Of a DNA stretch of 64,000 nucleotides, positions 6,290-57,330 are shown one piece after another. The stretch covers positions 22,754,001-22,818,000 of the forward strand of contig OX597818.1 of NCBI GenBank assembly GCA_951406725.2, read 5' to 3'. The stretch's first letter is position 1, and each line of letters opens with the position of its first letter. The position numbers were made by a program, and so were the translations under genes. Source of the stretch: Octopus vulgaris. Its lineage: Eukaryota. The notes under the pieces were generated by a model, which saw nothing but the letters and a program-made list of their open reading frames with translations, was not told where the DNA came from and searched no databases.

Positions 6290-6545
6290 TAGCCGAAGTC
6301 GCGTCTCGCCTTCACCTTCGAAACGCGGAGTAGATGAAGCCATGGCGACTGAAGAAGGGGAATTATCCTTGTGTTATTTGTCCTGTACTCTATTTTTTCG
6401 TTGTTTAAGAAAAATGTCCAGTTCCTTGGTTTTGTGTTTATGTTTTCGTTTCTCATTGTGTTCGACGTTTTTTTGGTGTCCTGTATCCATATATGCATGT
6501 AGATGTAGGTACGTACATATATGTATGTATCTATGCATATGTTTT
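6290..6545 (+). mobile_element. PLE pseudo-LTR-like repeat, family 1
   Basis: Near-collinear with 9745-10005 and, inverted, with 55975-56156. Carries the HHR motif and sits among microsatellites. Confidence 0.6.
6300..6360 (+). ncRNA. Non-circularly permuted hammerhead ribozyme motif (family 1)
   Basis: cgcgT-C-tcgcc..ccttc-GAAA-cgcg..ggcga-CTGAAGA-agggg. Stems III and I are Watson-Crick; stem II pairs with G-U wobbles. Confidence 0.7.
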
Positions 6546-9324: not shown

Positions 9325-9750
9325 CGAGCGCATTGATTGTGTTGAACCGTTAATCTCTACACATTGTTTTCTTTCCGTTTTTCTTTTCCTCTGAAGAGCG
9401 TATGTTCGGTCGTAAGACTTTTCCATTCTCCCCAACGTTAAACTAATACACGTGCTTGTTGTTCCTACACCTGTCTTCATCTTTTGTTTTCTGTAAATTT
9501 GAACTATATGTATATATATATATATAAAATCTGTTTCTCAAAAAATAGCGTTCGTAAAATTTTTTTATCTCGTTTGGCTTAACAGCCCTCCTTGTTTGTG
9601 CTACTGTTATTCTCCGTTGTCCTGTCCTTTACTGTTTATATTTTGTACTGTCGTTACTGTCCTGTTTTTGTTACCATTTTTACCCCTCCGCAAAAAAATC
9701 TCAAATTTTATTTAATTTGATTTCCGCGTGAAGGAAAATTTCATTGAAGT

Positions 9751-9811
9751 CATGTATCGCCTTGACCTTCGAAACGTGGAGTAGATGAAATTAAGGCGAC
9801 TGAAGAAGGGG
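9751..9811 (+). ncRNA. Non-circularly permuted hammerhead motif (family 1, second copy)
   Basis: catgT-A-tcgccttga-ccttc-GAAA-cgtg..ttaaggcga-CTGAAGA-agggg. Stem I extends to 9 bp. Confidence 0.72.
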
Positions 9812-10681
9812 AATTTTCCTTGTTTTGTATGTCCTGTACTCTATTTTTTCGCTGTTTAAAAAAATGTCCATTTCCTTGGTTTTGTGTTTATGTTTTCGTT
9901 TCTCATTGTGTTCGACGTTTTTTTGGTGTCCTGTACCCATATATGCATGTATATATACATGTAGAGGTAGGTACGTACATATATGTATGTATATATGCAT
10001 ATGTTTTAGTTATTTATTTATATATATATATGTATATGTATATGTGTGTGTGTGTGTGTGTGTGCATACACATATGTATGCATATATAGATGCTGTGTGC
10101 GTGTTTGTGTGTCGTATGATTTTCAACAAGTAGTGTAGCACTCGATCAGTTAAATGAGTGAAAATATTAATATAATAAAAGAACACAAAAAGCCTAAAAA
10201 GCCTTGTGAGAAAGTCAATTGCTAAACCGTCTTGTTGTTTTTAACAGCTTGATAAATGGCGAAATGAATTAATATCTCGGCTAGGAAGCCTTGTATAGCC
10301 GTATTTCACAATACTTTTTTGTGGATTATATAACAAGAACAACAACAGCAGCAACAACAACAATAACAACAACAACAACAACAGTAGTAGTAGTAGTAGT
10401 TATATATAAACGCAGGCGTGGATGTGCGGTAAGAAGCTAGCTTTCCAACTACGTAGTTCCGGGTTCAGTCCCACTGCTTGGCACCTTGGGCAAGTGCCTT
10501 CTACTAAAGCCTTGGGACGACCAAAGCCTTGTGAGTGGATTTAATTGACGGAAACTGAAAGAAGCTCGCCGTATACATACATACATATATCTATACACAC
10601 ATACACACATACATACACACATACATACATACATACATACATACATACATACATACATACATACATACATACATGCATGCA

Positions 10682-10784: not shown

Positions 10785-11243
10785 ATATATAGAAAATAGT
10801 AAAAAGTGAAAAAACTACAGAAGGCTTGTTTTAAAAGGTTAAAAAATATATATTTGAGTCATTATGTCAGAAGAATGTTATAAATTTTTTTCATACAATG
10901 ACATAGTTTTTGAAGAAATGACCGGTTTCGCGTTCAGCTTTTCAAATTTCTTACATCGTTTTGTTTTCGTTGAGAAGTGTAAAGAAATATTAAGCGATTA
11001 TCTCCCTTACACCAGAAGAAATCACTTATTACATCCCCTTATCTGGAACTCTTCTTTACACTTCTCAACGAAAACATAACGATGTAAGAAATTTGAAAAG
11101 CTGAACGCGAAACCGGTCATTTCTTCAAAAACTATGTCATTGTATGAAAAAAATTTATAACATTCTTCTGACATAATGACTCAAATATATATTTTTTAAA
11201 CTTTTAAAACAAGCCTTCTGTAGTTTTTTCACTTTTTACTATT

Positions 11244-11253
<10 letters not shown>
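10785..11253. repeat. ~200-bp near-perfect inverted repeat (foldback), probably PLE-derived
   Basis: Arms 10785-10986 and 11052-11253 differ at about 2 positions; spacer ~65 nt. Confidence 0.92.
11086..11125 (+). ncRNA. Minimal type I hammerhead, U3-A8 core variant (mirror copy at 10913-10952, minus strand)
   Basis: aagaaat-TTGAAAA-gctgaacgc-GAAA-ccgg-TC-atttctt. 7-bp stem I, GUC site, palindromic stem III. Confidence 0.75.
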
Positions 11254-11279
<26 letters not shown>

Positions 11280-11390
11280 GGAACAAAAACGCACTAGAGG
11301 ACATTAAACATTCGGATAGATAGACGATACAAAGGCGGACAAGAGAAACAACAATTAGAAGTATAGTAAAAAATTGACGGGTCATTCGGG

Positions 11391-11454
11391 GCTTTTTTTC
11401 CTCAGTCAAGTCCCAGAAGTCACGACCATTTCGGGCAGTTACACTTGAGATGGT
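11391..11454 (-). ncRNA. Non-circularly permuted hammerhead motif (family 2)
   Basis: Minus strand accaT-C-tcaagt..gccc-GAAA-tggt..acttga-CTGAGGA-aaaaaagc. Stems III (5 bp) and I (6 bp) are perfect; stem II is eroded. Confidence 0.68.
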
Positions 11455-12048
11455 TCGATCTGGTTGCCCCCCCCCTCTGCCCCCCCCCCCCCAAGGCTAA
11501 GCTAAGAGCATTAGACACCTTTGTAAGAAAACTAGCGAACGTTTACGGCAACAAAGACGAAAAAACAAAAACAAAAAACAGAACATGGTACACAATTATA
11601 AATACAAGCAACAAGAAAGTAACAACAGGTGTCTTTCGACTGAGAACGAATCAAATTTAGCTGGACTGTATGAAATGAAAGCCTAAAGGCAGGAACATAT
11701 GTGTTTGTGTGTGTGTGTGTTTGTCCCCTCGCCATCGCTTGACAACCGATGTTGGTATGTTTTCGTCCCTGAATCTTAGCAGTTCGGCCAAATAGACCGA
11801 TACAATAAGTACTAGGCAATCCTGTGGTTGATTTATTCGACTAAAGGCGATGCTCTAGCATGGCCGTAATCAAATGACTGAATCAAGTAAAAGAATAAAA
11901 GGATTATATATATATATATATATAATTTATAAGGATAAAGGACACAGACTTCATGTAGAATATGTTCCATACATTAATAGGACTCTACTGTTTGAAAACA
12001 TAAGAACTTAAACATATACCAATCTCTCACTCTCTCTCTCTCTCTGCG

Positions 12049-40563: not shown

Positions 40564-40611
<48 letters not shown>

Positions 40612-40613
<2 letters not shown>

Positions 40614-40950
40614 GTAAATGTAAAAAAATACAAACTGGGGCAAGAACGTGAAGCATTTAGAAGACGATACAAAAAACACGGACGGGACATTCGAAGCCTT
40701 CAATCTTCAGTCTAGAACCGGATCATCTTCGCAATTTCGGCTGATTAATCTTGAGATTGCTCCGATCTGGCCAGCCCCAAAGGAAGATCTAAGCCAAGCG
40801 CATTAGATTCCTTGGAAGAAAGCCTCGAATGTATACAAAACAACGACGGAAAAACGGACGATGTTACACGAGTAAAAATACAAAAATACGTAAAAACAAT
40901 AATGATAGCACGAATAAGAATTCAAAAATACGTAAAAACAATAATGATAA
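40612..40950 (-). mobile_element. PLE pseudo-LTR-like repeat, family 2 (homolog ~11277-11690)
   Basis: Shares AGACGATACAAA, GACGGG.CATTCG, CGATCTGG and GCATTAGA landmarks with 11320-11545; begins at a (TA)n tract. Confidence 0.55.
40695..40760 (-). ncRNA. Non-circularly permuted hammerhead motif (family 2, second member)
   Basis: Minus strand gcaaT-C-tcaaga..agcc-GAAA-ttgc..tctaga-CTGAAGA-ttgaa-ggct. Stems III and II are perfect; stem I has one mismatch. Confidence 0.72.
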
Positions 40951-41385
40951 TAATAATAATATATACACAAGCACACATATCTATATGTGTGTGTAAATAT
41001 GTATGCAGATGTACAAATATATGCACATATAGTTATACATATACTTACACATATACATATACCTATATGTACATACATATTTATACACACACACACACAC
41101 ATACATACGCACTTATACGAAGTTGATTTTTGTGCATCTAAAGAAATTATTTGAAATATCGCAATCTTATGTTCCCGGAACATTCACTATTTTCTTCATC
41201 TCAATTCTTGTATTTACAATCTTACGTTTTTTTTTTTTTTCTTTCTTTTCTAAAGTCTTTTTTGGCGATAGGAAGTCTGACCTTTTCCGACCTTTGCGTT
41301 TTTCTTTAAATTTTTCTGTCTGATTTTCGTTCTGTCTACCTATCTTTTTCTTTCTTTCTTTCTTTCCTTCTTTCTTTCCTTCTTC

Positions 41386-57145: not shown

Positions 57146-57330
57146 TATATGGGTACAAAGCTCGAAATGGGGAGTAGATAGACAGTCGACAACTGATGAA
57201 GGGTCGTTCTTTATGTTTCTTGTCCTGTTTTCCATTTCTTTCTCTCATTGTTTGAGTATTGAACACATTTGTTTTCGTAATACATGTTGTATACTGATGG
57301 TGAAGCCCTGTACCCATATATGCATCTGTG
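57141..57330 (+). mobile_element. PLE pseudo-LTR-like repeat with inverted 17-bp end and partial permuted HHR
   Basis: atgcatatatgggtaca (57141) is inverted at 57309-57325. GAAA at 57164 precedes CTGATGA at 57193. Body matches 56157-56270. Confidence 0.6.

Follow-up and report, generated by a model that had tools for sequence, protein, structure and literature searches.

Which bases pair to form stem II of a hammerhead whose blocks stand in a scrambled order, and is such an RNA cut in the animal? Both questions are raised by a minus-strand motif at 40695..40760 of the window, the 64,000-nt stretch of Octopus vulgaris DNA analyzed here. The initial annotation described it as a permuted hammerhead with an AUC site and a 5-nt insert between A9 and stem II. 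The motif letters that it quoted were confirmed at their positions by a sequence check (Table 1). The hammerhead core is present (C3-U4-G5-A6-N7-G8-A9, G12-A13-A14, A15.1-U16.1, H17), and the blocks follow one another as cleavage-site block, GAAA block, and CUGANGA block (S, G, C). This order is none of those of the nested three-stem junctions (CGS, GSC, and SCG; types I, II, and III). The permutation claimed in the annotation is upheld, and it is a non-circular one. We propose, at a probability of about 0.7, that the motif represents an active, non-circularly permuted hammerhead of Penelope-like elements (PLEs), opened between A9 and G10.1, and that the window copy is a damaged relic of it.

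The motif, its copies, and the element that carries it

Table 1. Positions in the window of the hammerhead motif, its predicted helices, the carrier element, and related copies
Feature	Position	Strand	Remarks
GCAAU	40760-40756	-	Stem III strand
C17	40755	-	AUC triplet
UCAAGA	40754-40749	-	Stem I strand
AGCC	40742-40739	-	Within block G
GAA	40738-40736	-	G12-A13-A14
AUUGC	40735-40731	-	Stem III strand
UCUAGA	40716-40711	-	Stem I strand
CUGAAGA	40710-40704	-	Core
UUGAA	40703-40699	-	"5-nt insert" of the initial annotation
GGCU	40698-40695	-	Downstream stem II strand of the initial annotation
Block S (GCAAU, C17/AUC, UCAAGA)	40749..40760	-	Predicted cut between 40755 and 40754
Block G (stem II 3' strand UCAGCC, G12-A13-A14, stem III strand AUUGC)	40731..40744	-	Sequence and pairing tests
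Stem I strand UCUAGA and CUGAAGA core	40704..40716	-	Private A at 40713 gives an A.A mismatch
Putative stem II 5' strand GGCUGG (G10.1 = 40776)	40771..40776	-	38 nt upstream of G12
P4 5' strand (stem I-stem II interaction helix)	40764..40770	-	Directly after the stem II 5' strand
P4 3' strand	40718..40724	-	Just before the 3' stem I strand; pairing tests
P0 5' strand (predicted closing or exit helix)	40818..40832	-	15-bp duplex with 40687-40701, -21.0 kcal/mol
P0 3' strand	40687..40701	-	Holds the last 3 nt of the "insert" and the GGCU
Hairpin H	40777..40815	-	Ends directly before G10.1; private T-to-C change at 40786
Carrier: 5'-truncated copy (positions 430-781) of a ~780-nt non-autonomous Penelope-like element	40608..40959	-	97.2% identity to the unit from L023
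Homologous ribozyme, older sister family F2b	11383..11471	-	Upstream GGGCA/UGCCC stem II, CCAGA/UCUGG P4
F1 copy, 5'-truncated, upstream strand missing	6295-6360	+	Layout as in the window motif
F1 copy	9728-9822	+	Layout as in the window motif; GAAGG/CCUUC upstream stem II
F3 copy starting 8 nt before G12	57156-57199	+	Starts just 3' of the predicted cut

Compared with its homolog at 11391-11454, the motif was annotated as having two compensatory changes in stem III and one in stem I, none of them of the CpG kind. The changes are two-sided as claimed (G-C to A-U and A-U to C-G in stem III; A-U to U-A in stem I), but the exclusion of CpG needs qualification because the C of the first changed stem III pair precedes a G, so that one side possibly arose by CpG decay. 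Selection on stems I and III in the parent elements, which the same note had postulated, is borne out when pairing within a family is compared with pairing between families (p = 6/40320 and 4/40320). The prediction that the family reads TCTTGA was also correct: 28 of the 29 other copies do, and one reads CCTTGA. The A of TCTAGA is private to the window copy (0/29), in which the stem I duplex has an energy of -0.6 kcal/mol versus -4.8 in the family. With this weakened stem I, the window copy is probably a truncated relic with little or no activity.

The AUC site is unusual among natural hammerheads, yet active: it has been called "essentially absent in natural hammerheads", yet is fast when purified (PMC1636495). 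The triplets of 103 distinct motifs were AUC in 51, GUU in 27, AUA in 11, GUC in 7, GUA in 5, and AUU in 2. These motifs come from 134 matches to a descriptor of the core plus stems I and III, stem II not being used in the choice; the matches were found in 814 kb of loci, versus 0 in reversed sequences. The loci had been enriched by similarity searches, and motif counts are not genome shares. The S-G-C descriptor has four matches in the 64-kb window. Beside the 11.4-kb copy lies an inverted repeat of 202 nt (10785-11253), with arms 99% complementary and 65 nt apart.

Genome-wide (2.8 Gb, 227 contigs), a 57-nt core had 132 exact copies versus 0 for its control. A loose pattern gave 133,182 matches versus 40,225 for the control, a figure that includes overlapping and unrelated matches and is not a copy number. 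An Rfam scan returned no hammerhead family among the 150 listed of 362 matches (212 weaker ones besides); those listed were only microsatellite-driven miRNA matches, rejected as an identity for the motif.

The window copy consists of the last 352 nt of the carrier unit, inserted in a (TA)n/(TG)n microsatellite. A genome similarity search gave 2874 first-look candidates, of which 40 were scored (97-100%). Of 30 loci chosen on the unit's 5' end, 24 have an incomplete 3' copy in front of the full unit, and L009 has an inverted 5' piece. The element has the traits of a non-autonomous PLE: partial-tandem pseudo-LTR structure, inverted 5' pieces, fixed 3' ends, 5' truncation, and microsatellite, here (TA)n, targets. 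These match PLE hallmarks described by Craig et al. (PMC8557442).

The autonomous parent of the family was not found; no ORF lies upstream of the unit in the 30 loci. A reverse transcriptase (RT) fragment 590 nt upstream in L009 was considered as parent and rejected as a separate insertion of a young PLE family, two examined copies of which end in a different, canonical-order minimal motif; the fragment had no match in Pfam. L202-L206, loci taken up in this connection, served only as additional sequence for scans. In the young PLE family, which is autonomous (L182, L188; 150 matches), open frames reach ~1200 aa, with RT followed by a GIY-YIG-like end; the minimal hammerhead that terminates L182 has the canonical order and UCGAAGA as its first core box.

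Stem II and the helices around the core

Across families, the strand before GAAA has a co-varying partner 35-45 nt upstream. The pairs are GGCUGG/UCAGCC, GGGCA/UGCCC, GAAGG/CCUUC, GAGCA/UGCUC, GCACUC/GAGUGC, GGACA/UGUCC, and GACACC/GGUGUC. When 14 offsets were tried on each side, a partner of at least 5 bp was present upstream in 80 of the 103 distinct motifs and downstream in 4; at least four Watson-Crick pairs were available upstream in 72 and downstream in 31.

For a cross-family test, eight representatives with differing stem II 3' strands were picked after the data had been seen; three of these represent one copy each, and degenerate single-copy motifs (L053, L063, and L005, for example) were excluded. 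The strands formed 5.50 Watson-Crick bp with their own upstream window versus 2.09 with those of others (p = 1/40320). For the downstream side the values were 2.12 versus 2.30 (p = 0.78), so that the annotated GGCU/AGCC helix has no family-specific Watson-Crick signal. With Watson-Crick and GU pairs counted the downstream value was p = 0.052, a trace of signal that speaks against the upstream model.

A MAFFT alignment of 17 rows (A3), trimmed to 2 nt before the proposed G10.1 and therefore favoring the upstream model, had 90.1% of the cells of that model paired, with a covariation of 0.707 versus 0.267 in shuffled alignments (0/500); slid controls reached at most 0.189. The downstream helix of the initial annotation had 59.4% of cells paired, with its closing pair in 8 of 17 rows and some covariation (5/500 shuffles). 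A stem II with a 1-nt insert was 59% paired, no better than shuffles, and was rejected. In 12 folds, computed with software that cannot represent pseudoknots, the upstream stem II had probabilities of 0.55-0.83 in four, 0.34 in one, and at most 0.07 in seven; the nested pair probability of the downstream stem II was at most 0.001 in all 12.

Stem II of the window motif most likely pairs upstream, as GGCUGG/UCAGCC. With this strand, stems I, II, and III all have covariation, as in a hammerhead. The putative helix begins in the G10.1-C11.1 register and runs on into P4, which links the end of the stem II 5' strand to the start of the 5' stem I strand. P4 had 83% of its cells paired, two-sided change at 5 of 6 pairs, and a cross-family p of 150/40320. 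Taken together, sequence and covariation establish stems I and III, the upstream stem II, and P4 as predicted pairings.

The bases after A9 are paired, in P0, with a strand ~90 nt upstream. This helix has a mean pair probability of 0.86 and is in the minimum free energy (MFE) fold of a family copy, which also forms H and the upstream stem II. In most families, no more than 2 nt separate G10.1 from the end of hairpin H, which lies between P0 and G10.1. The support for P0 differs among families: its probability was 0.62-0.92 in the F2 clade and at most 0.01 in five of six others, and it was not favored in nested folds of F1, two F3 variants, and the Naiad-like form. In F3 it is a 7-bp helix directly after A9, and the cross-family test with the eight representatives gave p = 1327/40320. 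The predicted four-way junction is weakly supported beyond F2 and F3. The "5-nt insert" after A9 is probably a misreading, and deleting it would shorten P0 and leave the core no tidier.

Ends of genomic copies and competing explanations

A template RNA cut by the hammerhead would be expected to yield inserts that start at or just past the site, 16 nt before G12. The 5' ends were examined in 40 copies chosen on the last 64 nt only, the sole sample behind the statistic, another one that overlapped with it being set aside. Sixteen of the 40 have their start in the 16 nt that follow the predicted cut in block S, 4-14 nt before G12. Among the ends between -59 and +150, 16 of 27 lie in the 16 nt between site and G12, whereas 2 and 1 fall in the neighboring windows of 16 nt (p = 1.4e-9 after multiplication by the number of windows). 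One further copy (L287) starts at the predicted site after removal of (AT)n microhomology; most ends lie not on the site, and fall 2-12 nt past it at AU steps matching the (TA)n target. The same starts were found on two different 3'-end variants, which argues against a single short master copy. Of 23 unselected copies from other families, 7 have their start in the stretch from the site to G12 (L172, which is the same place as L009 and not truly incidental, is outside this count). Two results count against cutting: just 1 Naiad-like copy out of 11 ends in that stretch, and the partial copies that lie upstream in tandem inserts have no such peak (2/24). The copy ends suggest that the hammerhead cuts in living cells. 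In another PLE, insertion in vitro proceeded without need for cleavage, and no reads ended at the site (PMC11167929).

Could the peak arise without cutting? A hammerhead-derived fold might be kept as an RT binding or packaging signal, with the ends set by AU microhomology to (TA)n or by RT stalling. The gathering of 5' ends at AU steps 7, 9, and 11 nt before G12 fits this idea, as do the flat distribution in tandem partial copies and the in vitro dispensability of cleavage just mentioned. However, a TA-like stretch 94-99 nt upstream received none of the 40 ends, the peak stops at the predicted site, and in F1, where the linker has no AU run, ends lie at 2, 6, 6, and 13 with the site at 14. The NUH triplet in all 103 distinct motifs also speaks for cutting, although the descriptor demanded it. 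We regard a non-cutting signal as improbable, if still the strongest of the competing explanations. A dimer, in which blocks pair between tandem copies and no pseudoknotted monomer forms, is the least credible of them. Tandem and partial-tandem copies are common, and dimers have been proposed for minimal hammerheads (PMC4209133); but stem III has its full 5 bp, the units are ~700 nt apart, the linkers of 1-6 nt resemble the 3-nt linker of tested monomeric SGC ribozymes (PMC10085705), and even in a dimer the A9-G10.1 link would have to be open.

Two further explanations give the downstream strand a part in stem II. A G-rich downstream stretch can form a 4-5-bp, partly wobble partner in several families, and in the window-copy family GGCU/AGCC has four Watson-Crick pairs. 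The motif could be a type-SGC hammerhead with block C whole save for the 5-nt insert, as first annotated. The covariation of that register in A3 counts in its favor, as do the 31 motifs with at least 4 bp downstream, all of them in F2a-containing clusters and F2d. In the close relatives F2b, F2c, and F2e, however, only runs of 1-2 bp are found, and in the sister motif at 11391-11454 UGCCC finds a 1-bp run after the core. The downstream duplex has -4.2 kcal/mol versus -8.3 upstream, its GGCU strand is buried in the P0 helix, and the cross-family signal is absent, which makes this reading very unlikely. Scarcely better placed is a switch in which the upstream strand is an anti-stem II that holds the ribozyme off until P0 opens and the downstream strand can pair, followed by cutting. 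Long and short inserts side by side would fit it, and the weak downstream partner recurs in F1, F3, the Naiad-like form, and F2a. Yet families with no downstream partner at all retain the core together with stems I and III, 5' ends just past the site also occur in two F2c copies, and the register of the upstream helix and its continuation into P4 count against an anti-stem II.

The proposed opened hammerhead and its relatives

In the opened hammerhead that we favor, the ring would be that of the non-circular SGC, CSG, and GCS permutations, with its opening at a fourth position, between A9 and G10.1. From 5' to 3' the order would be P0, hairpin H, stem II 5' strand, P4, S block, G block, P4', stem I strand, CUGANGA, and P0'. 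P0 and H may keep both ends of the severed block C in contact through a four-way junction, with the core stacked on stem II and P0 on H, and this junction would stand in for the A9-G10.1 backbone link. To judge from the copy ends, the RNA would be cut in the germ line, after the triplet; the 3' product, once reverse-transcribed, would then give the ~140-nt inserts that start just past the site, and uncut templates would give the long ones. Its role may be to free the element RNA from read-through or tandem transcripts, the usual hypothesis for PLE hammerheads. The A9-G10.1 link is not rigid, because one extra base is conserved there in metazoan PLE minimal hammerheads (Cervera & De la Pena, 2014; PMC4209133). 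These are of type I order, with a stem III that is minimal or absent, and have been proposed to act as dimers, in contrast to the full stem III, scrambled order, and predicted two-helix arm of the window motif.

Eckert et al. (2023; PMC10085705) describe six permutations, assuming that block C cannot be interrupted and admitting inserts of at most 1-2 nt; the opened layout falls outside the six. With their type-SGC (HRIMA-1) and type-CSG ribozymes the window motif shares the non-circular ring order of S, G, and C, the intact core, a short stem I-stem II linker, and an additional helix that bridges stems I and II at their far sides. P4 sits where tested SGC ribozymes have their required interaction helix. 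In type SGC, however, the stem II 5' strand lies 0-2 nt from CUGANGA, whereas in the window motif block C is split, the downstream partner is absent or weak, and the specific stem II strand and the interaction strand lie 5' of block S. Although SGC/CSG-like in its working, the motif is not filed as type SGC because it failed the test of an intact block C. The SGC examples in the available text of Eckert et al. are metatranscriptomic and the two CSG examples, the only ones in print, metagenomic, none being from the genome of a known organism (PMC10085705); the window motif belongs to animal retroelements at high copy number.

No description of a hammerhead opened between A9 and G10.1 was found in the literature, a search that covered the available text of Eckert et al., and a helix at that place may have been described earlier. 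Hammerhead variants with "additional helices" exist (PMC13725137, citing Weinberg 2015), and the available text of PMC3088659, PMC6155905, and PMC10162972 has no extra helix between A9 and G10.1.

Non-LTR retrozymes (bioRxiv 10.64898/2026.07.22.740005) resemble the carrier in being non-autonomous, hammerhead-bearing, PLE-related repeats. Their tandem arrays have a type I hammerhead in every unit, whereas the carrier unit is mostly solitary or partial-tandem and its motif is not type I. An unrelated, near-identical 534-bp tandem repeat in L166-L171, in arrays of 2-5 and inverted copies, carries a type I hammerhead of canonical order, the stem II of which has an AU-rich extension of ~40 nt; this repeat is likely a young non-LTR retrozyme.

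Related families have the opened layout, as does the 3' end of the octopus Naiad. Naiads are reported to be devoid of canonical hammerheads by Craig et al. (2021; PMC8557442), where eight "half cores", Naiad_Ovul among them as HHR_half_core, are listed and left unexplained. Read by eye, the consensus 3' ends of Naiad_Ovul and Naiad_Obim have the layout of the window motif (PMC8557442 supplement). Naiads and the carrier element are also alike in their (TA)n targets, partial tandems, and inverted 5' pieces (PMC8557442), while the link between the two rests on layout only. Seven of eight Naiad 3' ends inspected by eye, all from nematodes, read as type CSG with a long interaction helix of roughly 9-17 bp (Naiad_Parc, 1_Nbra, 2_Nbra, 3_Nbra, Hcon, Hpol, and Asuum; PMC8557442 supplement File S5); the consensus of 2_Nbra and 3_Nbra ends just after the G block. 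In the 3' end of Naiad_Esco, also read by eye, the opened layout is represented by P0, P4, stem I, and stem III, but stem II is imperfect (PMC8557442 supplement). The octopus Naiad motif has 399 matches in the Octopus vulgaris genome. A 3' motif of bivalve and hemichordate Naiads presumably recalls HDV-like ribozymes. This structured motif is shared by the two groups near the 3' end (PMC8557442 supplement).

A wider reading, which we hold to be slightly better than an even bet, is that the active hammerhead has a seventh connectivity, with a four-way junction in place of the A9-G10.1 link as entry and exit of the RNA, and that it arose from the nematode-Naiad CSG type by tandem duplication and trimming. 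Non-circular permutations would then be normal in several PLE lineages and would number in the thousands in each animal genome, with no descriptor having picked them up. If the part with which CSG begins (P4 strand, stem I strand, and CUGANGA) were transferred to the 3' end, the order of the window motif would result; a tandem duplication followed by trimming could produce it and leave the weak downstream G-rich stretch as a relic.

The list of six orders rests on an indivisible block C, and a natural high-copy family that splits this block would extend it. Non-circular permutations, so far confined to rare environmental RNAs, would then have a place in animal genomes. The clustering of insert ends at the predicted cut would be rare genomic evidence that a PLE hammerhead cleaves in vivo, and the opened layout offers a possible answer to why Naiad retroelements seemed to be without hammerheads.
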